DNA of 64,000 bases from Amoebophrya sp. A120 (lineage: Eukaryota > Protista > Dinoflagellata), in contig CAJINV010000016.1 in assembly GCA_905178155.1 (NCBI GenBank), positions 248,001 through 312,000 of the forward strand. Reading direction: 5' to 3'. Made by a program: the position numbers and the translations under genes. The notes under the pieces are model-generated. The model was given only the letters and a program-made list of their open reading frames with translations, had not been told where the DNA came from and made no database searches. Below, piece after piece: positions 1-55,786 of this stretch (positions within the stretch are counted from its first letter, which is position 1; the number at the start of each line of letters is the position of its first letter).

Positions 1-120
1 AGTTACCTCTTGCTTTACTGCTTTTGCACTGTTTTTCCATCTCTCTCTATGCTTTTGTACTTCTAACTTGTTGTAATTGTACTACTAGAGGAGCTCCTGC
101 AAGTACAAGGGAGTCTCATC
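1..120. repeat. End of a copy of the ~1.1-kb degenerate repeat unit also arrayed at 18.7-24.1 kb
   Basis: tgctttactgcttttgcactgtttttccatctctc..gcttttgtactt resembles 21718-21775 (tgctctactgcttttgcaaaggttttccatctctc..gcttttgtactt). Confidence 0.7.
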
Positions 121-18719: not shown

Positions 18720-21700
18720 GAGCCCAGACCTCTTGTAAAAACAAATTGTCATGCGCAACAAGCCCGAGACTTTTCTTCGAGAAGAGGCACAGACGAGACA
18801 CGAACGCGATGCTTACGGAAAAGTTCGAATTTAGTTAATTGTAAAAAAAGAATGAAAAAAAATAAAAATCGGTGATGACACTTACAAGAAAAACCTAAAT
18901 CAGGGGACAACGCAAATTCTTCGTTCACAACTGGGGTACAGCCGATACCTGGAAAACCCAAGAAGCGTGAGCTTGATCTTCGCTTAGACAAGACATTGTG
19001 GCTCTGGCTTTGCGTCTCCTTATCGCTATAGGAAATGTTGAGGAAAGCTAAAGTTTGCAAACTTAAATCTTCAGAGATGTCATAGTCTATCTCCGAGCTG
19101 AGTTTTGTCCGGAAAAAGATTGTCGCACTGGATAAATTCGAGTACGACGACAACAAGTCGGCTGTAAAAAAACGCTTCTCGGAAGATAGAAAACCTCTAC
19201 TACGGCGCTTCTCCGATAATTCCTGTTTCGTACTTGATGTTCGCTTCTCCCCATTTCTGCTTCTCTCCTTTCGGACAGGCAAAGACGGCTACAGACTGCT
19301 ACAACATCATGCGAAGGGGGATACCCATTCTCACAAACGTCGCAACTGATGTCTGGTCTCGCTGTTTTCGTAGTTAAACTAGCAAATAGAAATAGTGCTT
19401 CTACCTCTTGTTCTACTCCTGTTGGTTTTGCTCGAATTTTCAATCTCTCTCTTCCTTGCGACCACCGTGCTTCTACTACAGCTGCAAGATGAAGGGATCG
19501 AAAGACAAATAAAGCTACTGCTACGTCGAGGTTGTGACGTTGTTGAAGCTTTCAAGTTTTAAAACACTAAATCTAGCGTATCAAAACCGCGAAGAAAAAG
19601 AAAGAGACGCCAAGGATCTCCTGGAAACCCAAGGCAATGCTCTCCATTCACTTTCTTAAGCAGTCCAGGCACAAAAAAATAAAACATAACATGATAAATT
19701 AAAATTACTTGGTCGAGATACAATTATGCTTCTTTGCTTTGTTGAAAATGGAATGCAGATAAATATTGCCAGTGAGTTCTTTTTGTTTCTGATTAATTTT
19801 GACGAACAAATTTATGAAAATCACAAAGTATAGTCCTTTTCTCAACGTGAGAAAAAGCCCCTAAGTGCGCGCAACCTTGCAAAAACAAGTCAAGCGCAAG
19901 CCAGAGGTTTTTCTCCGAAATAGTGCGAGGACGAGAAAACGATTGAAATGAATACAGAAAAATTAAAATTCGACTTAGAAACTACTTAATCATAAAAGAT
20001 AACGAACTGAAATAAAATCAAAGGAAATATAAAAAAAAATGTAAATCACGGGACAATACAAGGACTTAACAACTGGGGCACAGCCGCTGCCTGAACAACC
20101 CAAGAAACGTGAGCTTGATCGGCGCTAAGACAAGACGTTGTGGCTCTGGCTTCAGATCTCCTTATCGGTGAGAAAAAGGTGTTGATGGGACTTCGAAGTT
20201 CGCAAATGTAATAAAGCTTCGGAGGGCTCCTCATAGTGCGCTGTCTTTGAACTGGCATTTGTGCGCAGAAAAAGAATTCAGAACTAGAATGCCAATACAA
20301 CGACAATAAGTCGGCTTGATTACACCAATGCAAACGCTTCTTGGAAGATAGAAGACGACAAAGTTGTCAATATTCCTACAGCGCCTCTTCAAAAAATATT
20401 GCTACTTCGTACTTCATCCACTTAGTTTTTCCCTATTTCTCGCCTCCTCGCCCCCTTTCTGCCTGGCCAGCGCTACAGACTGATACATCATGCGAAAGGG
20501 GGATACCCATTCACACGCGACAGATATCTTGCCTTGGCGTTTTCATTAAACTAGTAAGTAGGACCACTTCTAAACCCTCTTTCGCCACTCCTTCCACGCT
20601 GTTTTTCCATCTCTTCTCCCTTGCTTTTGTGATGAAAATACAGCTACGGTTGGCGACTTTGGAGATTTCAAGTTTCGAGGTGGTCTAGCTTTAGAAACCA
20701 CGACAAGCGAGAAAGAGACGCCAAGGGCTTCTCAAAAACCCAAGGCAATGCTCTCTATTCACATTCTCAAGCAATACAGACACAAAAGAATAAATTAATA
20801 CATTGAAAACACAAAAGAATAAATACATGACGATACAAAACTTTTTTGGATGGATTGATGAAGATATGGAGATAAGTAGTGACTTCTTTTTGTTTCTGAT
20901 TGTTTAATTTTGACGAACAACAAAAAATTCTGATAAACGAAAAATGGTGCGTTGTGAGAAAAAGCATCTAACCAAGCGCCGATTTGCAAAAACAAGTCAA
21001 GCGCAAGCCAGAGCTTTCTTTTCGAGAGGTGGCACAGACACGACACGAACACGGCGAAAATGGGGGGATTCGACGTCTACTCAGTTGAAAAAGAAAAAGA
21101 ATGGAAAAATGATCGACGATGATATGGAGGAACTTTAAAAAAAATAATAAATGTAAATCAGGGGACAACACACAAACATAGTACTCGGGGCCCAGCAATT
21201 GCCTGACCGAGCCGAGGAACATCGGCTCGATCTGCGCAAAAGCATTTTGTGGCTTTGGCTTTGCGTCCTTGTATCGGTGAGGAAATGCTGCGGAGGGTTT
21301 GAAGTTCGCAAATAGAAATCTTCGCCGGAGAGGTCATAGTTTTCGAACTGAGTCTTGTGAAGATTGTAGCCCAAGCACTGGAATACCCGTACAACAAGTC
21401 GGTTTGATAGAAATAACGCAAGCGATCGGAAGATACAGATAGCAGAGCTGGACGAAGACGAACGCAAAAATATTTTTGATGCGCCGCCTTATTTTCAATC
21501 TTTCTACTTTGTGACAGTGACTCCTCTTAGTTTTCCCTCATTTCCCGTCCCCTTTCTGTTGGCCAATGCTACAGACTGCTACAATATGCAAAGGGGGGCG
21601 CCCGTGTTCGCCAACGTCGCAGTGGATGTCTTGTCTTGATGTTTTCGTTAAAGTAGTATGTATCTCGAACGGGCGTGCGCAGACATCTAGTATATAGCAG

Positions 21701-24060
21701 CTACAACTCGCACCTTTTGCTCTACTGCTTTTGCAAAGGTTTTCCATCTCTCATCTACTCTTGCTTTTGTACTTGTACCTACTGCAGCCGCAGAAGGCGA
21801 CCAAAATACAGCAACGCTGAGAAGGGTTGGCGAAATTGAAAATTCAAAGTTTGTTTCATGTAGTGCTTGCTATACTAGATCTAGCTATCGAAACCGCGAA
21901 GAAAAAGAAAGAGGCGCCCGGGGCTTCTTAAACACGCGCGGCAATGCTCGTCTCCGTTGACGCCCTCAGGACATCAGCCCAGGCACAAAAAAAATAAAAT
22001 ATGACTTTGTCGAGATACAATATTTTTTTGACTTAATGGAATGAGGGTCGATGAAGAATGCTTACTTCTTTTTGTTTCTGATTAATTTTGACGAACAAAT
22101 TGCGAAAACCGAAAAAAGCGCTCGCCTTCTCGAGGAGGAAAGAAGGAAAAGCGACTGACCGAGCGCCCACTTGCAAAAACAAGTCAAGCGCAAGGCAGAG
22201 CTGTTTCTTCGAGATGAGGCACAGACAGGACACGAGCGCCATGAATACGGAAAAACCCGAAAAAATTACTTAAATAATATATTGATTGTAAAGGACAAAG
22301 TGGAAAAATAGAGTTGCAAAAAAAGCAAAAAAAAACTAAATGTATAAAATCAGGAGACAACTTAAATACTTAACAACTGAGGCGCAGCTGTTGCCTGGAG
22401 AACCCGAGAAGCGTGCGCTTGGTCTCCGCCTAGACAAAACATTGTGGCTTTGGCTTTCCCTCTCTTTGTCGACGCTGAGAAAATGTTGCGGAAAGCTTAC
22501 GTTCGCAAATCCAAATCTTCGGAGAGGCAGGTCATGCTTTATCGTTGAGCTGGCCTTTGTGCGCAAAAAGATTGCAGCACTAAAACGACAGCAGCACAAC
22601 GACGACAAGTCGGCTTGATTACAAAAATGCGACCGCTTGCTGGAAGACAGAAGGCGGCGAAGGTGTCACTAGTTTTTCAGCGCCTCTTCGACTATTCTTA
22701 CTCCGTACTTCATCTCAACACTTCCTCATTTCTCGTCTCCTTTCTGAGTGAATGGCCAGCGCTACAGACTGCGACTTCATGCGAAGGGAGATACCCATGC
22801 GCGCAAACGTCGCAGCGAATGTCTTCTTGCCTTGGTGTTCTCGGCGGAATTGAAACAGTACTACGTAAAAAGCAGCGCTCTAATTATATACGCCTTGCTC
22901 TGCTACTTCTGGTTCTAGTACACTTGACACTGTTATAATAATATCTCTCTCTTGCCTCTGTTCAACTTACTTGATGTTCCTTATTGAACCACTACGGCAC
23001 CCGCAAGAAGAGATCAAAATCTTTGGTTGGGTTGGTGGCGTTGAAGATTTCAGTTTTTTTCATAGTAGTAAATCCAGCTATCGAAACCGCGAAGAAAAAG
23101 AAAGAGACGCCAAGGATTCCTTGAAAACTCAAGGCAGTGCTCTCCATTCACGTTCTCGAGCAGTCCAGGTAAAAGAAAACATGACTATTCGGTCGAGATA
23201 CAACACTTCTACGCTTTGAAAATGCACTTCAGATAAAGGTTGCCACTACGAATAGTGCACTCTTTTTGTTTCTGATTAATTTTGATGAAAAAATTTCGAA
23301 AAACGAAAAACGCAGTTGTTCTTTCGGGATGAAACATAGAAACTAACGGAGCGCCGAATGGCAAAAACAAGTCAAGCGCAAGTCAGAGAATTTTCCTCGG
23401 CACGACGCACAGAGGCTCATGGGGCGAGTTCATCATGAAAATAAAAATAAAAATTAAAAAAAGCGAAAAAGTAATGACAGAGATATGTGAAAACGGACAC
23501 CAAAACTGCTTCACGACTGGCGCACTGCCGTTGCCTGAAGAATCCGGACAGCGTGAGTTTGATCTGCGCTGTGACAAGAAATCGGTGTGGCTTTGGCTTT
23601 GCATCTTTTCGTCGCTGAGAAAATGTTGAAAAAAAGTCGCAAACCCAAACTGTGCCTTTCGGAGAGCTTTTAGGTTTCGGAGTCACTGTTGCGCAAGGGC
23701 AAGCCCAAGACAAAATTGACTGTAGCAGTAGGAGTAGCAATTATAAAATACTACTACAACGTGCTCCGCGGCTTGAATAGAGTCGGAAATTGGCAGTATG
23801 TGGATGTCTATATCAGAATACGCAGATTGCATGAAATCAAGCAAAGTCTGATTTGAGAAAGAAAAACAAGGCGCCAATCTGATACATACGCTCGTACGAA
23901 AAAACAAATCGAACTCTCCGCGCCCGCGGCTTGAGTAAAATAATAGCAGCGCGCTGCCCCTTCAGCCGAAGCGGGGCGCCCATGCTCGCGGGCGTCGCAC
24001 TGGATGCTCGCAAGCGTGAGCATCTACTTGTTGGTGCTTATTTCGTTGCATTAGCTCTAG
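18720..24060. repeat. Degenerate tandem array of five ~1.1-1.2-kb units (possibly a decayed gene family)
   Basis: Anchor aaaacaagtcaagcgcaag at ~19882, ~20987, ~22175 and ~23363 (diverged at ~18737). Anchor aaaccgcgaagaaaaagaaagag(a/g)cgcc at ~19584, ~21891 and ~23084 (diverged at ~20695). Confidence 0.9.
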
Positions 24061-24147
24061 CTGTTGGACCGAATACCCGAACAAGAAAACGCATCAGAAA
24101 TTCGCCTCTGTAGGGTCGCCGACGCCGCCAGCGCCAGCGTTTGCTTT

Positions 24148-24726
24148 TTATAACTTGTGCCAAAATTCCTGGATTTGTTCGGCACTGTATTCGAGCGCCT
24201 GCAAAGCTGCTACCCGTCTCCGATCATCACTAGCAGACTGAGCACGCTCATCATGGACATCGACTACCCACGAGAAGGCAGAGTCGCCGCCGCTTTGAAA
24301 CTGGTCAAACGCTGCGCGAAGTTGAGCATGTTCAGGACCCGGCGCGCCCTCCTCTGATCCGCCCTTCTGTAAGCCGCTGCAGAAAGTTTTCTTGAGGAAT
24401 TTCGCCGCGTCTACAAGCACTCTCCGAAGCGCTTGCTTTTCGGCAGGCGCAGGCGAGTCGGTGATGGCGCTCCGTGCCATAGCAATGAAAGCGCGACGCT
24501 CCTTCGCCGCCGTCTCGCTAATCTTCTCCAGCACAGTTTGGGAGATTTTTTGTTCGACGAAGTTTAATACGTCGCGCGCCTGCCCATCCAATGTGCGGCG
24601 CACGACAATGAACGGGGCTACCCCTTGTTCTGTGGAGCTCCTGGAGGACACAGGCCCGCTGTCGGTTGTTAGCAATTCTTTTTTGGGCTGTCCAACTAAA
24701 ACTCCAGCTGCCGCGAACTTCTCCAA
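24148..24726 (-). CDS. Hypothetical helical protein, paralogous to the N-terminal part of 25726-29322
   Basis: LRRVLVDAAKFLK vs LRKVLVDAAHFLK; GDSAFSWVV vs GDSVYSRVV; VAALQALEYSA vs VEALQELEGSA. Start codon uncertain. Confidence 0.7.
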   Translation of the reverse strand: MEKFAAAGVLVGQPKKELLTTDSGPVSSRSSTEQGVAPFIVVRRTLDGQARDVLNFVEQKISQTVLEKISETAAKERRAFIAMARSAITDSPAPAEKQALRRVLVDAAKFLKKTFCSGLQKGGSEEGAPGPEHAQLRAAFDQFQSGGDSAFSWVVDVHDERAQSASDDRRRVAALQALEYSAEQIQEFWHKL

Positions 24727-25725
24727 CTTTGTATGCGCGGGAAACCGGGAAACGCTTCACCCCTGCGACCGACGAGACTGACAACACAGACTGACAGCCA
24801 ATCTCGACGGTGGGTTCACTGAGATGAGAAACGAACGCCGCGCATGGCCCCTGCGAGCCCGCCATGTCTGGGGCGGGGCTGCGCCGGCCGTCGGCGCGCA
24901 CCGCCGGCGCCCGCGCACCTTCCTGAAGCTGGCGCGCAATGGCGCCCCCCGCGCCCCCCTAATAGTTACGGGCCCGGGCGCGGGCCCCACGGGGCCCAAC
25001 TGGGCTCGTTGTTGTCCCATGGTTCGGGCCGCCCGTTGTCATCATTCCAAACCCAAAAAACCGCGGGCCCTTCGGGGGCACGCGCCTGTGAAGGCGGCTG
25101 CGCTTTCAGACACGCACGAAAGCCGAGGCCGTTGGCTATACCATGGCCCAGGCCCCCGCGTGCGCGTTGCGTGCAACGTCCTTCGCAGGTTGCCCGGGCT
25201 TTCTTCACTTTAGTCGCCGCGCGCGGCCCCCGCCGTCGAGCGATAGATAGGCCCGGGCGGCCCTCTATCCCAGGGCGGTCCGTCGATAGATAGTTCCGGC
25301 GGGCCATGGGCGTCGGGGGCGTGCATGGCCAATCTAGGGCCGGCCGCTGCCCCTTCCGTCTATCATTGATGGCTGGGCAAACAACGAAGGCCGCGGGCCT
25401 GCCAGAGCAGGCCGCGGCACGTCCTTTGTTTGCCATACACAAGCCGCGAAAATAAGAGTGACACAAGACAGGGGGGCGCGTTGTTCTCTTCTTGCTAGGC
25501 TTTCTGCCGTAAGGCGGCACCATAAGCGGTGCGCGGGCCCAACTGCCTTCCAAAATCCGGCACCAGTTTTTTTCTCATGCATTTTTTGAAAACCGGCGGG
25601 CGGCCAGCCGATCCGGCCGGGCGGCCATGTGCCAAAAAAGCCGCAAGCAGATCAAAAGAACAAGCCGCCCAGAAGCGTCCGGAGCCGAGTGCGTGGGGAA
25701 ATCGCGGGGCGGCGGCGCCACGGCA

Positions 25726-28700
25726 CTACAACGGCAGGCGCCACGGCGTTGCCCCTCGACGGCCCGCTGAAGACTTCCCGGGGGGCCCGGCTAGGCATTT
25801 CCGGGGAAAACTGCTGGGGGGCTTCGGCGAGGCCCCTTGAATGGGTTGGCGTGCTGCTACGTAGGTTGGTAATCTGCCAGAAAACCCTGCGCGAGCCCCC
25901 AGGAAGGCGCGGCGCCTAAGGCTTCCTTCCATCCCGGGCGGTGGAAGTTTGGGCGCGCGCGCGCCGCCCCTCGGGGTGACCACATAACAGAGCATGCAAA
26001 ATCCGGCGCGAGGCCGCCCTTTGTGGATTGCCTTGGCTTCGTTGCCCTTTTTGTTTCGGGGGCAGCTGAGGAGAGCTCCACGGCTAGCCTCCGCCAGACA
26101 GCAAGCCCAACCATGCGGCGGGCGTGCTTGCTCATGGCCTGTTCTGCTTCGGAAGCGTTTCCGGGGCGTCGCCTCCCATCCATAGTTGTCCAACTTCCAA
26201 CCACACAAAGCTTCCCGAGCTTGCGGCCAATGGTCCGTCGCCACGACCCCATCGGCGCAATACGCTCGGGCATACTCCAGGATCGCCTGCGCCCGCTGGG
26301 TTCCGAGCTGCCCGACAACCGAAGCGCCCCCTGCATTCTCGTCTTCCGCAACAAGTTCCAGAACCAACAGGGCCACAGCGTCCTCGAGGTTTTCAACGGG
26401 TCGCAAATGCACGCCGCCCTCGTCTTCGCTCGCCAATAGCTTGGCGGAGTCTGCCGGCCGCGCTTCTAACATGTGGGGGCCCGCCCGCTCCTTCAGCTGG
26501 TGCGCCGCGGCACTGACCTCCCAGGCGTATAGCTGGATCGCCAGAGGTATGCCGAGGGCGCGCTTGTCCGCCCGCCCAGACGCGGCAAGATCTTCAAGGT
26601 CCTCTGCCTGAGACAAAGCCTGCTGCCGCCTAGCGTCAACCCAAGCGGGTATGGTGGGGGCGAGAGGCATGTATGAGTTTTGCGATGTATTGGCGGAAAT
26701 ACATCGCAAAACTCATACATCATACATGGAAGATTTGAGGAGAGCGCGACGGTTCCCATGTACAATGTATGAGGTGCAATACATCAATGCGTCATACATT
26801 GTACATCGTACATTGTACATGGTCCAGTGTATGACGTACGATGTATGACACATTGCACATTGGTGCATTGTGCATTATGTACATTGATGTATTGGACATT
26901 GGACATTGGACATTGTACATTGTACATCGTACATTGTAGGTCGTCGAGCTGTTCGAGCAGCTCGACATCCGGGCCCATGTCGAGCCGTTGTCGAGCTGTT
27001 CCAACAGCTCGATATCCGGGTGGGTCCATGTCGAGCTGGTGGGGCAGCCGTGTCGAGCTGTTGCAACAGCTCGACATCCGGGCCTCTGCCGAGCTGTTGC
27101 CGAGCTGTTGAAACAGCTCGACATCCGGGCCCATGTTGAGCTGTTGTCGAGCTGTTCAAACAGCTCTACATCCGAGCCCGTGTCGAGCTGTTGTCGAGCT
27201 GCTCGAACAGCTCGACATCCGGGTCCATGTCGAGCTGTCGACATCCGGGTCCATCATGTCGAGCCGTTGTCGAGCTGTTCCAACAGCTCGACATCCGGGT
27301 CCATGTCGAGCTGTTGTCGAGCTGTTCAAACAGCTCGACAAGCGAGGCCATGTCAAGCTGTTGGAGCAGCCGCGTCGAGCTGTTGCAACAGCTCGACGTC
27401 CGGGCCTCTGCCGAGCTGTGGTCGATGCACGATGTACAATGTACAATGTACCAAGCAGGATGCACCATGTACAATGTATGTTGTATGATGTTCAATGTAT
27501 GAGGTACCCAGAGCGGAGAACTTGCGATGTATGATGTATGAGGTACCTACAGCGGAGAATTTGCGATGTATGATGTATGATGTATGAGGTACCTACAGCG
27601 GAGAATTTGCGATGTATGATNTGTATGATGTATGAGGTACCTACAGCGGAGAATTTGCGATGTATGATGTATGATGTATGAGGTACCTACAGCGGAGAAT
27701 TTGCGATGTATGATGTACAATGTATGATGTATAATGTACGAAAGTGAGGCCGTTCTCCTCAAATCTTCCATGTATGATGTATGAGTTTTGCGATGTATTT
27801 CCGCCAATACATCGCAAAACTCATACATGCCTCTCGACCCCACCATATTGACCCAAGCGCCAACACTGGCGAGGAAAGCCTGCAGAAAGGTTTTGGGCGC
27901 GCCGCGCATCTGCCGCAGAAGTTTTTCTTCACCGCCCTTTAGCAAAACAGGCGGCGCGTTTTTGATGGCGGAGGCGAGGCACCTCTCCAGAAGCACCGGC
28001 GCAGCCTTGTCAGGCGCGTGCTCGGGTTCTTGCCTGGCCATCGGGGCCGAGCCTGGGCTGTCTCCTGCCTCCCCCCGATCTGCATGCGGAGCCGCCTCCT
28101 GGCGCGCGGGTGCTTTTGTTTCTTTGAAGACCTCGCCAGCAGAAAAGCCGGCCGGCAGCGGCTCGCCCGGCGCCCAGAATAGCGCCGCGTAATACTGTGC
28201 GCGCAGGCCGCTCTCCGCATAAGAGAAAAGCTCACGCGCCCGGGCGAGCTCCTCGCGGCCACCGAGCACGCCGGGGGCCGCGGCGGTTATTTCTTGGTAA
28301 GCCGTGTACAGGTTCGTCTCGGCCTCGCTTTGAAATCCCGCCGCGCGCAGCGCCTGCCTTTCTGCTTCGCTTAGCAGGCTGCCATCGCCCTGCAGCGCTG
28401 GCCCCACGATTTCGATAGCGCCGCTCAACCTGCTTTCCACATTGCGAAGCGAGCACAGGAAATCTTCTTGCCACCGGGTGCCCTGCGGAGCTCCTGCGGG
28501 GCCAGGGACGGTCTCCTGCCCTGCAGACTTGCCGGGCGCCTGCGTGCCCTGGAACTGGGAAAAGCCTTCGAGCAACTCTTTGACCGTTTCGGCGGTCCGC
28601 TCTCGTGCGGCAAAAACATCCGCAGCAAGCTGCTCGCCCACAAAAAGCCCCGCAAGCTTTTGGGGCGGAGTAGGTGGCGCGAGAAATGCGCCAATGTGGA

Positions 28701-29322
28701 GCGTCCGCAGAAATGTGGCACTGCCCTCGAGTTCCTGCAAAGCTTCGACCCAGGCCTGGCCATCGCCACCAGAGTGGCGCGCGCCACTGACGACCCGCGA
28801 ATAAACGGAGTCGCCGGCCTCTTCAAATTTTTCCAAAGCGGCTAAAAGCTGCGCGGCGCGCTGTCCCTCTGCGTCTGGACGTAGCCCAGGAGGCACATAC
28901 CCCGGCATCTTTCTCAGAGTCTCCGCCAGGGGGGCGGGCCGTGGGGCAGACGCTTTTGTGAGAAATTTGAGAAAATGCGCCGCGTCGACCAGCACTTTAC
29001 GAAGCAACGTCGTTCGCTCTTGTCCGGCAGTGCGAGAGGCCGCGAAATCACGCCGGGCCTGCGCGACGAAATCAAGGCGGCGCCTCCGCCCATTCGCCGG
29101 AGTAATCCGGTCCAGGTAGTCCTCGGGGACCTTTTCGGCGTACTCTATTAGGTGGAGGGCCATGCCGCGCAACGTGTTCCGGCGAATGGTGGCGAAAGGG
29201 CTCCCCCCGGCTTGTGCGTTGCCTCTCGGGCTCGAAGGCAATGCAGCTGCAGGCCTGTCGAAATGTTTGGCGCAATGCAATCGGGAGCGCGGGGCGCGAT
29301 GCCGCCGGGCCAGCGAAGCCAT
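25726..29322 (-). CDS. Hypothetical helical multi-domain protein (~790 aa) interrupted by a 1.2-kb foldback element
   Basis: ORFs on both sides of the element share a duplicated AWV (..ASVGAWV|DARRQQ..). N-terminal domain shared with 24148, C-terminal domain shared with 33445, 34067 and 37098. Termini uncertain. Confidence 0.65.
26650..27847. mobile_element. 1.2-kb foldback-type element with 97-bp TIRs (TAT...ATA), probably an intron
   Basis: TIRs at 26650-26746 and 27751-27847, each containing a perfect 23-bp hairpin. Internal cattgta/tacaatg arrays are inverted; palindromic gtcgagctg..cagctcgac units; tandem units of ~40-55 nt. 9-nt DR acccaagcg at 26639-26647 and 27851-27859. One N at 27621. 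Confidence 0.85.
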
Positions 29323-31068
29323 ATAAATACTGACAAGCAAAATCCCAAAGAAAGGGGGGCCTGAACAAAAGCACAGAAACGGAGCAGGCTGAACAATAAC
29401 TCTAGAGCGCCCCACAGAAAAGCCATATACTAAATCACTAACTGGAAGCCAAAAGAAGGCGGCAAGCCGGACCGCACGAAGACAACACCGGGCGAGGGGC
29501 GGGCGGGTGAATACATGGAGGCCGAATACGAGGCGAAAAACCCCAACGGGCCGAGCCAAAATAGAAGCAGGCGCGGCGCCTCCGGTGGCCGCCCAATCAA
29601 CGAACCAAAGTAAGAACAGGCATCGCCCGCCGGCCCCCCATACCTGTCTAGGATGCCTGCCTGGCCAGGCTGGCAGGCGCCAAGGCGCCCGGCCCCCTTT
29701 TCTACCTTTGGCCCCTTTCGGCTTTCCCGAGGGACCGGGCCACACAAAGCCGCCGCCCCACGAGAAGGGCTGGGCGCCCGGGGGTCCGGAGCAATATGGG
29801 GGGGCCCTGCCTTAGCAACCGAGAGCAGAGAAGAGGCCCCCACCCGAGCACGGCGAACGCCCATCGCACGCTCCCTGTCTCTCTGGCCCTGCGTGTCTGA
29901 GGGCCGGGGGGCGGCGCGCGCGAGGGGGTGCTCGACGGCCCGCGGGGCCGTCAAGCCCCGCGGGCCGTCAACTCGCTGCGCGCAATGCATGCCCTTGAGC
30001 CCAACGCCATGCATCCATCCCGACTGGAGTCGGCCTGAAGCACTCACGCGCCACGCTAAGGCAACATTCAAAAGCCGCGGCCAAAACACCACGGCCCCGC
30101 CCCCCCCGGACCTCGCAGAGGCTTTCCGGGTTTCTTGCGCTGGAATGGCGGGCCAACTAGTTTCTGGCCCTCAAAACCACGCGCGCCGGATAAAAGCAGG
30201 CGGCCCACCGACTTTGGTTGGCGGCCTCTTTTGGGGCCTCCGAAGGTTTGGGGGGGCGCGGGCCGATGTGGCGCTCACGCCCTTCCTGCATAGATACCAT
30301 GCGGCGCCCTTTGCCCTTCGGCTAGCCGCCTCTTTGGTGGCCCGCTCCTTTCGGGCACCCAAGGCCGCCAAGTAATAGCCAAAGCGGCTGGCGAGCGCCT
30401 CAGAAGGTCGGCCGCCATACCGGCTTCGCTGCGCTGGCCGATTCATCAGGGAGGCGGCAGGCGGCACAAGCCAGTCGGATTGCGTCCGTGCTTGGAAACG
30501 AAGCCCCGGCCGCCTGGGGGGCGCGCGCCTTTTTTTATCTTTCTGCCAAAACCCTGCTGGCCGCCTGAGGCCTTTCCATAATATTGCGCGGGGGGCAGCG
30601 CGCGCCTTGCCTTGCTGCAGCGCTCGCCACCTCGCGGCAAGCCAATTCCCTGCCTAAGGAGCTGCGCTGGCCTAACTGAATTCCGCCCCGCGGCGGCGCC
30701 CGAGGTGTAGGCGCCGAGGACAATCAACGCGGCGCAAGTTAGTTGACGCCCTGGCCGTCGGGCCCCGCAATCAAAAGTGGTGGCCTGCGGTCATGTTGCA
30801 GGCCTGCGATAATAGCCCCCGCGCGGGTGCTTTTGCAAAACACGCTGCGCCCTCTCAACGCCTTGCAACCGGACGACAGGCCCGCGCGCGGCTGCGTGCC
30901 TGCCCTCCCCTGGTTTGGCATTAAGGCGGAAAACACAGCCCCCCCTTCTCTGGCCCCCTTCTCCGAACAAGACGGGCCCCCAATGCCAGGCCCCAAGCAA
31001 TCTATCTCGCCGCGGCCATTTTCTTAATTCTCGAACGCATCATGACAAGGCAACAAACGAGCACTATC

Positions 31069-31785
31069 TTACCCAGCTCCCAGGCCGCCGCGCCACCACC
31101 AAAGAGAGGGATGGCCCACCTCCGCGTCTTTCCATTCGCTGCCGCCTTCCGTTTGCTGCAAAGTGACAACCCCGAGACACTCGACCTCCGCCTCTGTACG
31201 CTCCTTGCCCACGGCCAGCGAGGTGAGCGCGGCAAGACGCGAGCCCCCCGAAGGCTTTGGCCCTCCTGGTCGGCGACGTACGCGGGCCGTTATTTCCAAA
31301 TCCCTTGGAACGCCAACCCAACGAGCCGCCTTGCCGCTGCTTTTGTCCAACTTCTGGACGGCGTCGATTGCGTAATAGAAGGCGCCCTTTTTGTATCCAC
31401 CTTTTCGGCGCGCCGTTCTGAAAATGACAGGGGCGCGGCCGTTCTGGCTTTCCAACTCCCAGTCTTGCGTGCCCTCTGGCTCGCCGCCTGCCTTTTCTCT
31501 TTTTTTCCAGATGGCGCGCGCGTTCGATATTCGCCGAATGGAGGGCCTGAGCCACTCAAGCTTCGCCGCCTCCTGCAGTTTTGTATGCCCAGAAAAACCC
31601 CGGGGGGATTTCACTGTTGGGGCCCGGCAACACGAGCGGCCGCGCGTGATGGTGGGCAACCTGGGCGAGTGCGGTGGCAACTGGCTCCCGCCCCAACATA
31701 TCACCGGCGCACCGCAGCCAGGGTGTTTAGCGACGAGAGGCGGCTTGCTTGGTTTGGGCCGGCCTCTAAACAAAGCTGGCCCCAC
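31069..31785 (-). CDS. Possible hypothetical protein or decayed ORF in the GC-rich island
   Basis: 238-aa ORF on the gene-bearing strand with non-repetitive composition; no recognisable motif. Confidence 0.25.
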   Translation of the reverse strand: MGPALFRGRPKPSKPPLVAKHPGCGAPVICWGGSQLPPHSPRLPTITRGRSCCRAPTVKSPRGFSGHTKLQEAAKLEWLRPSIRRISNARAIWKKREKAGGEPEGTQDWELESQNGRAPVIFRTARRKGGYKKGAFYYAIDAVQKLDKSSGKAARWVGVPRDLEITARVRRRPGGPKPSGGSRLAALTSLAVGKERTEAEVECLGVVTLQQTEGGSEWKDAEVGHPSLWWWRGGLGAG

Positions 31786-33444
31786 CCCCTGCTTGCTGCC
31801 TCTCTACTTCCACCACCTAGGTAGTCTCTATCGCCTCGCGCGCGGCAAACATCCTCTGGCCCGCCCTCTGGTCTTACCGGTAGCGCCCGCCTCTGCGTGC
31901 TTTGTCTTACTTATGAAGGCCCTACGCCGGTACCTTTTGCGCGCGCGGCAATTTGAAAACACTTTCTGGGGCCTTTTACAGTTGCCACCGAGCGCGCTGG
32001 CAAAGAAAACCACGCCACCCTGGCAACGTTAACTAGAACAAGAAACGAGCCCGGAGGGCCGAGAGCGAAAGTGGGGGCGGACGCTTTCGGGCCCCGCCGC
32101 CTTGACAAATCGCGCCCCAGGGCCCCAGCTACCATCTCGGTGCCATCGGGCAGGAGCGCAGACGCCATCCCGCGCACAAATGTGCAAAATCACCGGGCGC
32201 CGTATCTCGCTCAATTACACGCAGGCGTCCTCGCTTTTGTTCGCTGGCTGGCTGGGGCGCGAAGGCGCGGCGCACCGCCCCGCGGTCGCGTCTACTGCGT
32301 TTTTAATTTTATAAGACAGGCAGCGCCGCACCGTACCGGCCGGGCGGTTCGGCTTCTGCCCCGGGCGGCCAACAACAAAACGGCACACCCCGCCCGTCCG
32401 CTTCCGCGAATAAAACGGCCTGGGCCAATTGGTAGGCTACCGCAAGAAAAGGCCCCGGGCTTTTAAATTTTCAAACGGGCCCAAAGAACATCCCGAGGCG
32501 GAGCAAGAAAGACAAAAAAAAACAAAAGAAGGGCTGCGGCCAATACACAAAAAAAACGGCGGGGGGAGGGGCGCCGGGGCCCCGGCGCCGTGTCCATCCC
32601 GTTTCCCGCCAAACGTTCCGGGGGCGGGTACTGCGTTGCGTGCTGCATGCTGCCCGAGAAAAATAAAATCGCCGCGGGGCGACGGCCTCGGCGCCCGGGG
32701 TTTTGCAAGTCCCCGACGGGTTCGCCAGATTTTAGAAAAACAGCCCGCCCAAGGTTCGTCCGCCTGAACCAATCAGCCTCCGCGGGGCGGCAACCTCGCC
32801 GCGCTGTTTCCCGCCCGGCGCGCGTACGCCGGCCCGCGCTGCTTCGCTCGCATCCTCGGAAAAGAAGAAAGAGGGGCGGGGCCACCCAGCAGAGGCCACA
32901 AGACCAATCAAATTGCCGCCGCCCGGTCGCCCACAAGAGAGGGCAGGCCCTGGCTGCGCCTGTTCTGTTGGCGCCGCCTTCCTACCCCACAAGCCGGCCG
33001 GGCCCTATCTGCTGGCCTGCTTGCAAAATCCAAACCTGGCTGGGCCCTGGACGAAGGGCGCCGCACTGACTAAAGTGCCCGGCCAAGCGCGGACAAACCG
33101 AGGGCGGGCGCCAGCTCAGGCTCGGCGAACACGCTGCCACCCACCCTTGCGAGGGCCCCCCAGAGCCGAACGGGGCCCGCCTCCGGGCTTTACGAAAATG
33201 CGATCCGGTGCGCGTGCGCCTGCCTTGTTCTTAAATACACAACCGACGCCGCTTCAGGCGCGTCCGACAGATCTTGCTGCGCGCGAGAAATTAGGAAAAC
33301 AACGCCGGCCGCGCCATAACAACGTCAGGGCGGCACACCCGCCCAACCTGCCTGCTTATTTGAATGCATGGACGAACACGGGCGGCCGCGTCGGTTACTA
33401 AAGGTTCTGCGAGTGGGCCCCCCAAAGACTTTCGCTTTCCGCCC

Positions 33445-33888
33445 CTACTTTTCTTGTTTTGCTTTTGTCTTCTCCCACTCCCTGCTCGGCTCCTTCAGTG
33501 GGTTGCGGCGCTTCTCCACCTTGTCGACGTACGCCGTGGCATACTCCGCGAGCGTTTGCACGGCCTCAGAGCCGAGGCGCCCAATGGCCAATCCGTCGAG
33601 AACTTTCTCACCTTCAGAAACAAACGCCAGAGCCAATCGGGCCGCAGCGTCTTCGAGAGTCCTGACGGCGCCAAGAGACATACCACCCTCCTCGTCCGCC
33701 TCCTTATCCAGCTGGGCTTCGGCGGCAGTAACCCTGTCCCAGAGGTCATGCACATCCGGGCCCTCCTCGTCGCTCGCCCAGCCAGCTTCATCGTTGGCCA
33801 ACTTTTCTAGACCCTTTGCCTGGGCCACAACCTTCTCCAACCTACGAGCAAACACAACATCAAGAGGCGCTATCGAGTGCTGACCCAT
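33445..33888 (-). CDS. Hypothetical helical protein with the LExxxARLxxxFV..LG..QTLxEY domain
   Basis: LEDAAARLALAFVSEGEKVLDGLAIGRLGSEAVQTLAEYATAY; probable ATG at 33888 within ORF 33445-34299. Confidence 0.6.
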   Translation of the reverse strand: MGQHSIAPLDVVFARRLEKVVAQAKGLEKLANDEAGWASDEEGPDVHDLWDRVTAAEAQLDKEADEEGGMSLGAVRTLEDAAARLALAFVSEGEKVLDGLAIGRLGSEAVQTLAEYATAYVDKVEKRRNPLKEPSREWEKTKAKQEK

Positions 33889-34066: not shown

Positions 34067-35143
34067 TCAAGCGCGCCACATTGTGGCGGGGCGGGTGCTC
34101 GCAATGGGGCGCCGGGTATGCAACAGGGCGGCCGGGGGGACCCGGCTAGCCAGGGCGGGGGGGGGCTGCAGCAGTAGGCGAGGAAGCAAACGGGGGGCGG
34201 CGCCCGGGGCGCGGTGCAGAGGGAGCAGGGGTGGCAAGGCGCAAGCCAGCCCCCGAGGGCAAAAAACCAGCGCGGCTGGGGAGGCGGCGCGGGGGGCACT
34301 CAGCCAGCTGACAATGCCGAAACAGGCGCCCCGCCGCCGGTTCCATGCCCCCAGCCGCTGCGGCCGTGCCGAGGCAGTCGGCGCCGGGAGGCTACAAAAC
34401 AAATGGCGCCGCGGGCTAGCGGTGCCTGCAAAGCGGGGCCGCGTGGAGATGGGGAAAGGATTCAGCCTCCTACCATCAAGCTTCGTGCACTTTCCTGCAA
34501 GCGACCTCAAGATGTTCGGCGTGATCGCGTCTTCTAAGTCGCGCCGCACGCTATCGAGGGCCCCCTGTGCGATACTTCCGGGAGGCACATGCCGTACGGC
34601 GGTGCCTCTTCTGACCAAGCTCTCGGCATGCGCTGCGACGTACTCCATAAGCGTTTGCACCTTTTGGTGGCCGAGCTTGCTGATCGCCCAAAGGGCGCCA
34701 TCGTTGTAATCGTGAAAGCCAACAAACAACATAGTCAGCCGGGCAACATGGTGCTCAAGGTCTTGCGCTTCGGCAGCATTTGTATAAGAGGGGGCCCTGA
34801 CACGCTCAGGCCTAACTAAACTCCCGAAACAAGGAGGTGCGTGGGCTCCAATAGTAATACTTCTTGATCGCGGGGAATGGGGATAGGAAAAAAAGGCACG
34901 CGCCGGCGCGTCCAGAACACCAACTAACACGCTTGCTGCTGGCCAGGCGAACCGCCTCCCCGGGTGGGCTTCGCCCCGCGGAAGATTCCGTGTTCCCGGA
35001 GAATCGGGGCCCCCTGCTACCTGGGGGTCCCTGCAAGGCCCCGCCTTTCCCAATGTCTCCTCGGGGCTCTTCGGCCTCCCGGGCGGCCTCCGTGACTCTT
35101 CTCGCGCCCCCGGTGTGGCTTTCTGCGGTCGGGGACGTGCCAC
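34067..35143 (-). CDS. Hypothetical protein or fragment with the same domain (credible part ~34450-34830)
   Basis: LEHHVARLTMLFVGFHDYNDGALWAISKLGHQKVQTLMEYVAAH. Confidence 0.45.
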   Translation of the reverse strand: MARPRPQKATPGAREESRRPPGRPKSPEETLGKAGPCRDPQVAGGPDSPGTRNLPRGEAHPGRRFAWPAASVLVGVLDAPARAFFSYPHSPRSRSITIGAHAPPCFGSLVRPERVRAPSYTNAAEAQDLEHHVARLTMLFVGFHDYNDGALWAISKLGHQKVQTLMEYVAAHAESLVRRGTAVRHVPPGSIAQGALDSVRRDLEDAITPNILRSLAGKCTKLDGRRLNPFPISTRPRFAGTASPRRHLFCSLPAPTASARPQRLGAWNRRRGACFGIVSWLSAPRAASPAALVFCPRGLACALPPLLPLHRAPGAAPRLLPRLLLQPPPALASRVPPAALLHTRRPIASTRPATMWRA

Positions 35144-35722
35144 CGGGCGCCCATCTAGAAAATGAAATCCTCCGCGGCGCCTTTGCCCCCCCTAGTCGGG
35201 CCGCCCCGGCCGCCAGCCTGCCATCCAAGCAAACGCGGCCGGCGCTCGTCAGTTGGAAACCCCGGGGCGGTGGCGGCCGCTAATTTCCAGCTAATTTTTG
35301 CGGGATTTTTTCAAACCCCGACAATCGGGATAATAGTTGAAGGCCCAAACCCGAAAAAGCGACAACCCAAGTTGCCGCGCGCGAGGTCCCAAAACAATCA
35401 CGAGAGGGGCTTCAGGACAAGAAAAAGAAAACAACGAGAAGCAGGCCGCCTCCTACACATGGAGCATGGCAACGCCGGCAATCTCACACAGGATGAATTC
35501 CCGCAAAACAAAACCCCAAATCCCAAAACCGCCCGAGAAGCAAAAGCACCCATCGAACACCCCACCCAGTTACACCCATACGAAACACCCCCCGCGGGCG
35601 GCTATTTTCGCTGCTAATTCTGCGGCTAATTTTGTTTCTATTTTTGGGCTCTATTTTCGTTTCTAATTTTGCTTCTATTTTCGTATTCTAAATCATGTTC
35701 TATTTTCGTATTCTAAATCATG

Positions 35723-36000
35723 TTCTATTTTTGGGTTCTAAATCGTATTCTATTTTGGCTTCTAAATCGTGCTACTATTTTGCTTTCTATTTTTTGCGGG
35801 ATTCGCATGTTCGAGCGGCTGCTTTTCAACTTCTAAATTCGCGCTTTGGAGGATTTCCTTTGGAAATCTCCAGTGTCGCGAAAAATAGAAGTTGAGAAGA
35901 CAGCTGCCGAACACGCGAATCCCGCAGAAAAATAGAAAGCAAAACAGCGAGCACGTTTAGAAGTCCAAAATAGAATACGACTCAGAGCCCAAAAATCGAA
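35723..36000. repeat. ~280-nt imperfect palindrome (long hairpin) preceded by AT-rich short tandem repeats
   Basis: Arms such as tcgtattctattttgg/ccaaaatagaatacga, tgctttctatttt/aaaatagaaagca, gcgggattcgc/gcgaatcccgc and tcaacttcta/tagaagttga pair in nested order around the apex gatttcc-ttt-ggaaatc. Confidence 0.85.
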
Positions 36001-37097
36001 AGCTTTCGAAAAAGCCAGCGACAATGGCTTTGCGAAAGAACGAAACAGGGATAGGGTGCAGGGATTTCAACATTGCCCACACGGCCCAGGTCTTCACAAC
36101 CCAAGCCGAAAACCCGAGGGCCCCCATGAAAACCAGACCACAAGCGCTGCCCTCCACCTTCGGGGCCACCCGGGTACGAAAATACCAAAGAAGCCCCCAG
36201 GGCGTTCGAAATTCCGAATCCCCTGCAAACGGCCGTAATTTTTAAATTTTAATTCCCGTCGTGGCTTTTCATGGAAAAACACACGCGGGACCAGCGGGGG
36301 GATTTGACAAAAACCCGGCCCCCCGGGCGCGGTGGAAAAGGGCGGAACCCTGCGGGCCCGGGAAACTTCAACGCCCGGGGATGAAAACCGCCGCCCACCC
36401 TAAGGGCTTTGGGGAAATCCCGCAAAAATTAGCTGGGGTTTAGTGCCTCCCGCGGCCCGCGGGCTCTCTGACTGACGCTCGTAAGCCAAGCAGGCGGCCT
36501 AATGTGGCGCAGAGGGTCGGTTCCGCCTAGTCTTTGGGACCTCCGGCAGGAGGGCTTGCCGCGCAAACTAGCCTGGGGCACTCACGCCTGGGCCCGCCGG
36601 TATTGGGGGAATCCCGAAAAATTTAGCCATTTTTTTTGTCAGCCGCGGACCGGGGCCTGCTGGTGGAGTGCGGCACCCCATCGGGGCAGCCGCCCGCCCC
36701 CCCGGGGCCCGGCTTCGGCGCGGCCGAGTTTCGGGGGCGGAAGCCTCCGCGCCTGGGGCCCTTTCCAAAACCACCAGGCCCGCCACACATCTGTGCCGGC
36801 CTGTCGGTAACTGAGCACTTATTAACGCAAGGAAGCCGGGCGGGCGCGCTGGCGACGCTTTATTGTGCCGGCAAGTCTACCCTGATTTCCCCGTCATTCA
36901 ATATTTGATGGCAGCTGGGAGCACGAAACCAATGCCCGCAGGCAATGCGGTGTCCCGGCTGTTTGTGATGCGCCATGGCACCACCACGGCGCCCACGAAA
37001 TCAATGGCAGCCTTTGCGCCGATTCAGCGGAAAACCATTTTGGGCCATGCCTGTTATTTTCAGGAGCGCAGCCACGCAATTTCTAGGCCTGACAGCG

Positions 37098-49000: not shown

Positions 49001-52000
49001 AAGTTCAGATTTGAAGATAACGCCGAGGAGGTGTTAGATCGTGCTCTAGTCGTGCCCCTACTTCGAGAGGGAGATAAAGACAACAAACTGGTACTAGACC
49101 GGGAGAGAAGACTGTTGGACTGCGCCAAAAGGTCATCTTCTTCTCCATCGGAGATGTGAGCATCGTTCTGACCGGCGCTTACTATTTCGTCCAGTCCAGT
49201 ACGATCATCTTCCATCTCCGCAACGTCTGACGAATCCTGCTGATCCGCTTCGCTCGCTGAATTCATCTCATCAGAGGGCGATGTAAGAATGTGCGTATCC
49301 AGCACCGCACCACGGTCTTCTGGTCTTTCAGACGGTGGAGTGAAGGAAGGCAGGCGGTGTAGCACTGCGTCATTGTCGTGTAGTAGTTCCATATTAGCAA
49401 GAGCTTCGTGCTCATCGTCGCCTAGAAGTGCGATTTCTTCAAACCCGGTCGCATCATCAGCTCCTGATGTCCGCAGAACATAATCGTACTCGTGGTCTCC
49501 GTCTCGCTGTGCTCGACGTGCATCGTTATAGTTCATCCGGACACCAGCGCCAACGTCTCCCATTTCCACGTCGCCCTCCTCCTGTTCCCCGACAGGCGAC
49601 GCTGACGGTGTTTCCCCGATTTCCGTTGTGCCCCTGCTCTCGGAGGTCGTCGCGGCAGGAGTCGTGGGCTTCGCGATCCTTGGCAGTAGTTGACCTTCAT
49701 CTTGCAGTAACTGTTCACTTTCTCCTTCTTGTTCCTCCTGCAGATCGTGCAGACGCGGTTGCTGGACTTCTACGTTGGAAAAATCAGCTGGTGAACAACT
49801 TCGGTGGTCCAGGTGGTCACAGTTTTCTCGCACAAGCACACTCTCTGTAGGAGGACCGAGCCGACCTGTGCTTGACGCGGCACCGCCGATAGAACGACCG
49901 GCAGCCATCTCCACATCGCCTGCTAGTTCAACTCGACGCGTACTATCTGGATAATTCTGCTCCTCGCCGTGTGGTTGTACTATGCTCCGTGGAACGTCAG
50001 TAGTCCAAAACCGCATTTCTTGCATCGCCGGAGCCGCACCTGCACTTACAGACGGAAGGGAGGAACCACCTGCCCCGGCAGCACCTGAACTAGTTCTGCC
50101 TGAGCCCCGACTTGATGTTCTGCCACTTGTCGCGCTGCAATCGTGCAGCCGCAAGTCCCCGCTGTTTTTCACCAAGAGGTAGAACAGCAGCGCAGCCGTC
50201 TCCTATGCAAAAACGTCCCCGTAATGCAAATCTGCATGCCGAAGATATCTCTCATGCGGAGCCCCATGGGAAGCATATCCATTTTCTAGCTGTGACGTTT
50301 CGAAATTTGTGATGCCCCAATCAGCGCGATGCGCTACGTCTGTGATGCTACTGCACTAGCTGAAGAGGATTACACTACGAGGCCAAGCTTGTCATGCGTA
50401 ATAGCCAAAGCGTGTTGATTTGTCTTGCAGATTTCCCAACTTGACGATGGGGTGGGGACGTTTTTACATATGATAAACCGCCGCCTCCTCCCCGATCGTG
50501 GAGACCAGGTCCATAATCGCCCGGTGCTGCACAAACGCCGCCACTGTCGACGTCGAGGGTTGCTTCGTAGTGCTTACAGTAGAAGTTCCACCAGCATTCA
50601 TTGTCATTGTGTTCGGAGCATTAGAAACGTTATTTGTCGTCGTGCTCGACGCGCTAGCTCCATTCCCGGCACTGTTCGGCGAAGCAGAACTACTTGCTGA
50701 CGCGTCTGTCGTTCTCCTTCCACGCCACGATTGCCTCCTCCTCCCAGGACCAGCAGCAGCAGCCCCAGCACTACCTCTGTTGTTCGCAGCCCTGTTTACA
50801 CCCCCACGAAGAAACCTCGGGACGACGGAAGGCGGAACCTCCATCCCATCGGCGTTCGCGAGTGTTCGCAGGTAGTCCAGCGTTATTCGATCATGGTCGG
50901 GGTCGAACCCGACGTACCGTTCTGCTTCGTGGTTTCGGCGGCGCAGACGCTGAATCCGGTTGCTCAGACGAGAAATCCGGGCACGCGGGGCACTGGTCGG
51001 TATCGGTTGCTGTGTAGATGAGGGGGTGTTGATCGGTTCTTCTACTTCATCTGTGGCTGTCGTACTAGGAAATAATGGTGGTGCAGCGTTTGGAGCACCT
51101 CCAGTGGGAGAAGCTGCAAGTGGTACTGCTTCGGATGCTGTCATTTCTTCGTCAACGAGCGGGAACAAAACAGCAGCGCGGTCTTGCAATTCGTGTGCGG
51201 TAGAAAAATCATGGTTGATTTCATCATGTTCGAGAGCTGCTGCTGCTCCAGAAGGAGCTGCCAGCAGCGTCTCGCTTTCAGCATCTGCCACGTCGAGAGT
51301 TTGAGTTGATCTGCTTGACGCGGCTTGTCCTTGTTCCGCAGCAGTTCGTAAAAATTCCTGCGGTACTAGGCCTATCCCAAACGGGGCTTCTGATTCTGTG
51401 GCGGGTGGCAGCACGTCGTGGTCATGTGAAGCAGCAACACCTGCTGCAACTCCAGCTACTCCACCACGACCCGGGCTCTGGTCCAGCGAAAGCCCCCGCA
51501 AGGCTGCGGCGGCAGACATGGGGGAGCAGGTGCTGTTTTCATCCAGAGCAAACAGAGACGACGTGGAAGACTTGTTACAGCGTATGCATTGCACAAGTAT
51601 CGTACTCGCACGAATGACAATCATGCATGACAAATTCCATTCCGAAAGAAAAATCAGCATGGCAGACTCCATTTTCGTTCTTGAAAAAATTTGCAATGCC
51701 ATTCATACTAGAACTAGTACGATACTTTTGCAATGCATACAGCGCAAGGTCGAGCAACTGCTCCCCGGTGTAGCTGTGCTGGCGCTGTCCGATACGGGGC
51801 TGGCAGCTGCAAAATCGTGATTTATGATGGAACTGGAGCTGCTACCACTAGAAGTCATTATCTTAGCTCCTGTGGTCCCATCTTCGCCAACAAGGTCGTC
51901 GTTTGAAATCTTCGAGTCGCTTTCTGTCTTCGCAGCACCTACAGCAGAAACATCCTCCAAACAACTGCCGGCCACTGTGCTGTTTTCATCGCGAGGTGCC

Positions 52001-55000: not shown

Positions 55001-55304
55001 GCAGCACTCGAGCTCGGCTAGATGAAGATGAGGGTTCTAGCGTCGGCCCGTTGTCCTGGTCTTCGATATTCAGGTAGGAGGCGGAGGCTGCACTAAAAGG
55101 GGCAAAATTGAAATAAATGACGGGGCTTATTGCGAACAAGCTGTGGAGCAAAAAGAGCAGAAGCTTGCCAGCTCGGGTTCGTCGTGGTCGAGGATGTGAG
55201 GTAGAAGTTGAAGGGTGTTTACCTTTAGGCAGGCTGGAGGGGACGAGCATGACAAAACTGGAACGGGAAAACAAAACCGAAAAAGGAACGGGCAGGTGGG
55301 CCAT
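46044..55304 (-). CDS. ~2,390-aa putative membrane RING-finger (C3HC4-type) protein; 9 introners plus one inferred GT-AG intron
   Basis: Removing 312, 164, 166, 114, 175, 109, 162, 282, 267 and 328 nt gives one frame. CQIC...PCGHFLCNVC...CPFCR is a RING-HC pattern. Hydrophobic N-terminal segment (LLLFLLHSLFAISPVIYF) and Cys-rich hydrophobic segments near the C-terminus. Confidence 0.8.
46185..46507. mobile_element. Introner family D (opposite orientation to 16430 and 54447)
   Basis: TIR tatgggagtgtcagga.cgaaatcg.caaagttga; DR tggtc/cggtc; 328 nt, restores frame. Confidence 0.92.
47176..47437. mobile_element. Introner family B (opposite orientation to 14256 and 58399)
   Basis: TIR tat....tgyaaaaatgtctgggtctggaaga; DR gcgat/gcgat; 267 nt, in frame. 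Confidence 0.92.
50199..50475. mobile_element. Introner family C (left terminus TCT instead of TAT)
   Basis: tctcctatgcaaaaacgtcccc ... ggggacgtttttacatatgata; DR agccg/aaccg; 282 nt, in frame. Confidence 0.85.
51583..51739. mobile_element. Introner family A
   Basis: TIR tatgcattgca.aagtatcgtact; DR cagcg/cagcg; 162 nt, in frame. Confidence 0.92.
52391..52494. mobile_element. Introner family E (opposite orientation to 53172)
   Basis: tatcaacagaaaaaaaaccaatccac ... gtggatgggtgctttttcctggata; DR tgttc/tgctc; 109 nt, gives ENPMS|IRKID. Confidence 0.85.
52660..52834 (-). other. Probable canonical GT-AG intron (175 nt)
   Basis: AG|GTACTG ... AAAATCAG|GT. It removes the in-frame TAG at 52707-52709 and supplies the needed frame change (RPGG|SNAAAAP). 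Confidence 0.6.
53172..53280. mobile_element. Introner family E; 3n and stop-free, inside the RING loop
   Basis: Perfect TIR of about 30 bp tatccaggaaaaaacacccatccccatcca; DR tagtt/tagtt; 114 nt. Confidence 0.92.
53453..53613. mobile_element. Introner family G
   Basis: tatgcacaggaaatttcccgcacacgtacaaaa ... ttttgtacatgtacgggaaatttgtcttgcata; DR ttcag/ttcag; 166 nt, restores frame. Confidence 0.92.
53712..53870. mobile_element. Introner family A
   Basis: TIR tatgcactgcaaaag..tcgtact.gta; DR gcgga/gcgga; 164 nt, restores frame. Confidence 0.92.
54447..54753. mobile_element. Introner family D
   Basis: TIR tatgga...gtcaggattgaaatcgtcaa.gttgaaat; DR tctgt/tctgc; 312 nt, in frame. Confidence 0.92.
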
Positions 55305-55786
55305 ATCTTTCTCTTCCTTATTCAGGTGGCCCTGGCCTCGCAGATGATGATGGACGATTAGGATCACGAGATGAAAATAGAGGACACATCGTGAACAAAA
55401 ATGCCGCTACTTCGTGTGGTATACCAACTATCATCGCTGAAGAACCGGTAACCCAGCTGTTGCCGGCCGCTTTCGCTTAAACACTGGTTTACAAAACAGG
55501 GCTACGTCGTCCTTCGCTCTCCCGCCAAAACACGAGGACGAGAGCAATCGAAATAAAATCAAAACCCCTCGGAGCTGCGGCTGACTCCGTTCAAAGATCA
55601 TGGTCGCGGGGCCAGCGAGTATAGAAGGACGCCGCCTGGCCGGGTATTAAGAGCGTAAGCTTAATGATGTCTTTTGGTATCAACTGTATCTGAGCATGTT
55701 TCATCAGTTCTTCATATCGTGTGTCTCGCGTTCCGTCGGAAAGAATTTCCTTCTGTCTTGTTCAGTGCTTCTGCTTCGACCAATCG

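Follow-up and report, generated by a model that had tools for sequence, protein, structure and literature searches.

A 1.2-kb foldback element that interrupts a protein-coding gene of Amoebophrya sp. A120 is spliced out of the host transcript as a non-canonical intron, and the cut can be placed to the base. The removed segment (26646..27848, minus strand, 1203 nt; all positions are those of the window, that is, the entire 64-kb stretch of DNA analysed here) has AT..CG ends and extends from 1 nt before the TAT to 4 nt after the ATA that delimit the inverted repeats of the element. The element is probably a non-autonomous transposon of the Mutator/Foldback type that is removed by the stem-guided splicing that also serves the small introners, with a -1/+4 cut that leaves 9 nt in the message, in frame.

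The element is flanked by two 97-nt terminal inverted repeats (TIRs), of which the left one (26650..26746, plus strand) starts with TAT and the right one (27751..27847, plus strand) ends with ATA. In an inverted-repeat comparison, the two arms are 98% complementary, with a single outer mismatch at 26660, and each contains a perfect 23-bp stem with a 6-nt loop (26669-26720 and 27777-27828). Next to the left TIR lies a subterminal array of 7-nt modules (26747..26938, plus strand) that reappear in inverted orientation on the right (27426..27494, plus strand): all five copies of CATTGTA inside the element are located in its left half, whereas TACAATG is present once in the left half and four times in the right half. 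The center is occupied by an array of palindromic units (26939..27425, assigned to neither strand) that is 487 nt long, with a period of ~47 nt and a GC content of 0.61; within 26943-27397, this array contains 12 copies of GTCGAGCTG and 7 copies of CAGCTCGAC. The right modules are followed by a tandem 46-nt array (27495..27750, plus strand) with end motifs common to the TIR hairpin arm and four copies of a 25-nt motif spaced by 46-48 nt. The only N in the window, at 27621, falls within this tandem array, so that the length of the element is uncertain but its ends are not. All this is in full agreement with the initial annotation, which had described the hairpin-bearing TIRs with TAT..ATA ends, the inverted 7-mer arrays, the palindromic run of ~480 nt and the tandem array, and had noted the lack of one motif, GCATGACAAA, of which we found no copies inside the element and 28 outside, counting both strands. 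The ends of the element read TATGGTGGGG-G/T-CGA and do not conform to the A120-type introner pattern of TAT followed by 7 nt and a run of at least three A.

Comparison of the element with the whole window yielded no other matches; there was no Rfam match in 24000-32000, and no Pfam family was detected in two of the longest frames of the element. The possibility that the element encodes a protein was rejected, the frames being read-throughs of repeats; an origin from tandem repeats or from assembly only was rejected on the evidence of read contigs.

Splicing is documented by a 4016-nt contig recovered in two runs, X3 (depth 79) and X4 (depth 83), which come from one sample, are labelled RNA by guess and are represented by contigs rather than raw reads. 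This contig contains a single exact joint, from 26645 to 27849, with zero letters of ambiguity or microhomology. Two further introns are missing from the same contig, the loose ends of which fall at 31074 and 24727: a canonical GT-AG intron of 1818 nt (29255..31072, minus strand) and a second TAT..ATA intron of 1458 nt (24728..26185, minus strand). The contig thus represents a spliced message. The RNA-like depth is ~80 in the exons compared to 0-6 in these two introns and 0 in the central array of the element. In contrast, in the DNA-like run X1, both flanks run into the TIRs, and the joint is absent. Thus, the suggestion that the element acts as an intron is borne out by the spliced joint in both X3 and X4. 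The joint is not the one that had been envisaged, however. Joining at the 9-nt direct repeat that flanks the element would skip 1212 nt, whereas the RNA skips 1203 nt and so retains 9 extra nucleotides. Instead of the GT/GC..AG ends of canonical U2 introns, the single possible register yields AT..CG.

The host gene is encoded on the minus strand, with the exons 27849..29254, upstream of the element, and 26186..26645, downstream of it. The frame that is open across the joint encompasses 621 codons; without splicing, it stops at 27549. An additional upstream exon (31073..31582, minus strand) has an upper limit that is assumed from the length of the 4016-nt contig rather than seen, and the last coding part (24151..24727, minus strand) repeats a domain of the exon 27849-29254 with 34% identity. 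The four exons together form an open frame of 984 aa, with the outer limits assumed from the size of the 4016-nt contig. The earlier claim that the joint fuses two paralog-supported domains does not hold: the supposed paralog, 24151-24756, belongs to the same transcript as its next exon, and the junction is not spanned by any paralog. Two profile searches, with 15 and 6 frames, assigned the host protein to no Pfam family; none of the 6585 candidate homologs passed, and there was no usable Atlas match. Likewise, none of the 337 candidate stretches from metagenome contigs was confirmed as containing the host exon. Further copies of the short domain from the exon 26186-26645 were detected at 33529-33699 (42% identity) and 34628-34765 (35% identity); these may represent additional exons of this repeat-built gene, located farther upstream. 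At 31580-31586, the expected start of the 4016-nt contig provided that it is contiguous, ATA is found together with the same four bases as at the 3' end of the intron 24728-26185, possibly, another non-canonical acceptor.

The window holds many smaller elements, 109-388 nt long, that start with TAT, end with ATA and are bounded by a flush 5-nt repeat; these match the motif that Farhat et al. 2021 (PMC7789003) describe for A120 introners. The repeat is perfect in 16 of the 22 small introners listed, a list that was partly selected for a 4-of-5 repeat and most of which was recovered by an unfiltered scan. For a flush 5-nt repeat, the -1/+4 cut is scarless, and the perfect repeats of the small introners mask its position. 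The flanks of the 1.2-kb element do not match, which is why its cut can be localized, so that the element likely exposes where this poorly understood splicing cuts. Read on the transcript strand, the joint of the element is compatible with a single register, with the cuts 1 nt ahead of TAT and 4 nt beyond ATA. Among the joints listed, the core plus 5 nt is lost at all four TAT..ATA joints that could be reconstructed, that is, those of the element, the intron 24728-26185, and the small introners 45656-45960 and 45273-45598, the latter two lying on either side of a 52-nt middle exon in one X4 contig. The three other joints allow 3, 5 and 6 registers in all (-1/+4, -2/+3 and -3/+2 in the case of the intron 24728-26185), and each set includes -1/+4, which is the sole register common to the four joints and is fixed by one of these alone, that of the element.

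Usable RNA pieces were available for 3 of the 14 catalogued small introners, among the pieces listed for 44000-63900. At the introner 47176-47437, two RNA contigs (depth ~3) end their match at 47168, at an AG, which is 7 nt short of the scarless joint and 7-8 nt past the ATA; had the join been scarless, 920 + 257 codons would lie in one open frame. The stop at 47168 could reflect an alternative acceptor or an enclosing intron, and this joint counts against a strict -1/+4 rule. The identical loss of the core plus 5 nt from the element and from the small introners fits one removal pathway. The GC-rich intron 24728-26185 has TAT..ATA ends but only a weak stem and neither a long TIR nor a 5-nt repeat, and still loses the core plus 5 nt, which suggests that old introners keep the same signal.

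With respect to the enzyme involved, a U1-less spliceosome that would keep the U at intron position 2 while relaxing the terminal G's is our favored candidate, and this is the least-tested step of the scheme. The -1 cut would place the T of TAT at position 2, and U is conserved at this position of spliceosomal donors. In A120, U1 has not been detected, whereas U2, U4, U5, U6 and nearly all spliceosomal proteins are present. The published boundaries, which are annotated ones, with aligners favoring GT/AT/CT where the repeat is perfect, lean toward the same register: all nine of the predominant A120 non-canonical motifs start with N-T (Farhat 2021, Table S4, PMC7789003), and in the three fully counted A120 families, N-T starts account for 892 of 1322, 383 of 540 and 6681 of 9716 introns (68-71%), compared to ~4% for TA starts (PMC12130899). 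In fam2, the less aligner-biased part of the starts consists of 744 TT against 392 TA, 85 TC and 68 TG, and A-N forms the 3' end in 6598 of 9716 cases, as summed by hand (PMC12130899). The element intron ends in CG, unlike the A-N of most annotated A120 ends. An unlikely alternative, although the strongest one, is that the removal and the register are the same but are effected by a structure-reading endonuclease and an RNA ligase, as proposed for the nonconventional introns of euglenids. The AT..CG ends with no fixed terminal dinucleotides, the strong terminal stem and the undetected U1 are all compatible with such an enzyme pair, and the euglenid introns, too, have paired motifs, placed at a constant distance from each end. 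However, the dominance of N-T starts and A-N ends among the annotated A120 introns, which resemble relaxed GT-AG, and the near-complete set of spliceosomal parts are better explained by a spliceosome.

The 9-nt direct repeat, identified by pattern search of the whole window, occurs only at 26639..26647 and 27851..27859 (both plus strand), 2 nt outside the TAT and 3 nt outside the ATA, and is likely a target-site duplication of 8-9 nt. In draws from the flanking exons, a 9-nt repeat located no more than 5 nt from both ends was obtained in 72 of 200,000 cases (0.00036). Other copies of the element help define its true ends. At the right end, two copies with differing flanks (X3 and X1) align through 27850, the contig with the unique right flank in X1 starting at 27821, 30 nt inside that position; at the left end, another copy aligns from 26647 (X3 and X4). 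Hence the TTG that follows ATA beyond the inverted repeat (27848..27850, plus strand) and the GG that precedes TAT (26648..26649, plus strand; possibly, including the G at 26647) likely belong to the element. Given that these bases are shared by other copies, the repeat, which the initial annotation described as offset by 2-3 nt from the termini, is probably flush with asymmetric true ends; the spacing from TAT and ATA stands as described. Because G is the first base of each of the two foreign right flanks and the foreign left flank contains GGG, the ends are uncertain by 1-2 nt, and the duplication would be 8 or 9 nt long. With either length, 14 nt lie outside the core and 9 nt remain, provided that the empty site held a single copy of the repeat.

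The contigs that bear the TIR carry three different foreign flanks, none of which is present in the window; the element is repeated elsewhere in the genome. The contig depth is 58-82 in the inner part of the element and 21-24 in the flanks, which hints at about three near-identical copies, a figure that we do not use as a count. The exact 21-nt TIR pattern had no matches in metagenome contigs, and neither the sequencing-run contigs nor the metagenome contigs contained a copy with both flanks or an empty site, so that the duplication length is that of one locus. Additionally, a 1740-nt RNA-like contig (X4, depth 35) carries a ~65-nt variant TIR end, unspliced in mid-contig, and a different inner array, and is possibly a related, single-ended family member.

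The second alternative, which we consider less plausible still than the endonuclease and ligase, is that the element is a larger ordinary introner with a decayed 5-nt duplication, the 9-nt repeat being an older exon duplication, so that the RNA would restore the original sequence with no scar. The TAT..ATA ends and the removal of the core plus 5 nt do match the small introners, and no homolog was found against which the three extra residues could be checked. However, the 5-mers flush with TAT and ATA agree at only one of five positions, so that no 3-5-nt boundary repeat is recognizable and four of the five places would have diverged while the TIRs stayed 98% matched. Furthermore, unrelated copies share the bases outside TAT and ATA, and the chance of a 9-nt repeat so close to the ends is ~0.0004. 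Finally, it is highly improbable that the skipping contig is DNA of an allele with an imprecise element loss, or an assembly artefact, with the gene simply disrupted: even though the runs are RNA by guess, come as contigs from one sample, and long hairpins can provoke template switching, the same contig skips two other introns that are nearly devoid of coverage, the joint lacks the microhomology that template switching would favor, such as the 9-nt repeat, and X1 shows no joint.

The A120 introners described by Farhat et al. 2021 (PMC7789003), like this element, have TAT-starting inverted ends and non-canonical splice sites near the terminal stem, and are non-coding. The element shares the non-canonical removal (AT..CG), the TAT-starting inverted repeats and the presence of copies elsewhere. 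The described introners have inverted repeats of 8-20 nt and direct repeats of 3-5 nt, with introns of up to 1 kb analysed (PMC7789003), whereas the element is 1.2 kb long, has 97-nt hairpin TIRs that lack the A-run at positions 11-13, is flanked by an 8-9-nt repeat and leaves a scar. The splice sites are characterized in the same source as 'variable' relative to the hairpin. Thus, the element works like an A120 introner but departs from the described small elements in two features that define them.

A Mutator-type introner class with an 8-9-bp duplication is, in fact, already listed for A120 in the 2025 dataset, so that the earlier proposal that a second element class may use the same removal pathway fits the loss of the core plus 5 nt and the lack of window matches and of a flush 5-nt repeat, but does not introduce a new class. 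The listed family, fam65 (Gozashti et al. 2025, PMC12130899, supplementary file 8), is the only 'Mutator' row among the 58 of 58 A120 rows covered in that file and includes four copies of ~627 bp with GG/CC termini. The family resembles the element in its duplication of 8-9 bp, its GG-type terminus, the use of gt or at as 5' sites together with 3' sites that are non-canonical, and the small number of copies; it differs in the ~627 bp length, TIRs of 42-46 bp, GG/CC termini and similarity to MuDR (PMC12130899). With its ~1200 bp, 97-bp TIRs and GG/TTG ends, the element does not fit the fam65 description, which was the basis of the comparison. The A120 rows in file 8 include no clear counterpart of a 1.2-kb element with 97-bp TIRs, and none of six element motifs was found in 13 of the 14 supplement files of PMC12130899. 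The legend to Fig. S8 of that paper mentions that some introners add amino acids. No printed statement of a fixed -1/+4 register and an in-frame scar was found, subscription papers and figures lying outside the search.

The affinity with Mutator/Foldback elements that was proposed initially fits the anatomy, but no transposase was found. The element has the long, composite, module-bearing TIRs of Foldback-type Mutator/MULE elements; the 9-nt repeat at this one locus falls in the 8-10 bp range of their duplications, and the termini, GG on one side and TTG on the opposite one, with an uncertainty of 1-2 nt, show an asymmetry similar to that of Tm1. This Mutator/Foldback element of root-knot nematodes (PMC3169594) likewise has composite module-built TIRs, a duplication that is 9 bp long in most cases, short asymmetric motifs that lie beyond the inverted repeat, and non-coding members of ~1 kb; Tm1 differs in having transposase-coding members and empty sites that have been shown, and the likeness is one of anatomy, not sequence. 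The passages of PMC3169594 that deal with Tm1 do not describe it as an intron. Other parallels include the nonconventional introns of euglenids and the non-canonical introns of Fritillaria (PMC11282704), which are transposon-derived, have ends that are drawn together by pairing and lack GT-AG borders, but their motifs and offsets, CAG/CTG at +4..6 and -8..-6 in euglenids and AG-AN in Fritillaria, are unlike those of the element. The introners of Polarella and Symbiodinium (bioRxiv 10.1101/2020.10.14.339549) show 3-8-nt duplications in one genome and several intron-making transposon machineries; however, they recruit GT/GC/GA and AG, whereas the cut of the element appears to be set by the distance from TAT and ATA.

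These observations suggest the following scenario. The element would have been inserted by a transposase encoded elsewhere, with an 8-9-nt duplication flush with the asymmetric ends, which would put 14 nt in all outside the TAT..ATA core. Pairing of the TIR ends in the pre-mRNA, however the inner hairpins fold, would set the cut by position, and such pairing is predicted both in end-only and in whole-intron folds. In one of the folds, a mini-hairpin may form at the 3' cut site; we do not rely on it. The -1/+4 cut would then take 5 of the 14 outside nucleotides, and the gene would survive with three extra codons, the 9 leftover nucleotides keeping the reading frame open; by symmetry, the opposite orientation would give the same net gain. 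For a 9-nt duplication and offsets of 0-8, the computed frame is kept only at 2, 5 and 8, so a single surviving exonic copy cannot separate adaptation from survival by lucky geometry. We put forward, tentatively and with considerable doubt, a broader proposition, namely, that a positional ruler tuned to 5-bp duplications has been hijacked by an unrelated Mutator/Foldback lineage that carries TAT..ATA inside its true ends, such that every exonic insertion, in either orientation, adds three codons. If true, this would be a transposon through which host proteins acquire short peptide duplications.

Amoebophrya removes tens of thousands of non-canonical introns without a detectable U1. If true, the -1/+4 rule would correct many annotated boundaries, and it predicts which transposons could become harmless introns, namely, those for which the number of extra nucleotides plus the duplication length minus 5 is a multiple of 3. 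Scars of three codons would offer a concrete explanation for part of the fast protein change that has been reported in the Amoebophrya lineage.

The window contains several other repetitive structures. A foldback-like region of ~1.2 kb (35260-36463) has 60-nt arms with 75% complementarity, together with nested inverted arms and tandem arrays of 24-25 nt. A 993-nt segment (60306-61298) starts with TAT and has 46-nt arms (89%) and no flush 5-nt repeat, with no RNA joint among those listed. Five diverged AT-rich tandem units of ~1.1-1.2 kb each occupy 18883-23572, and a tandem duplication with units of 867-873 nt (39099-40719) carries a 235-nt introner in both copies.
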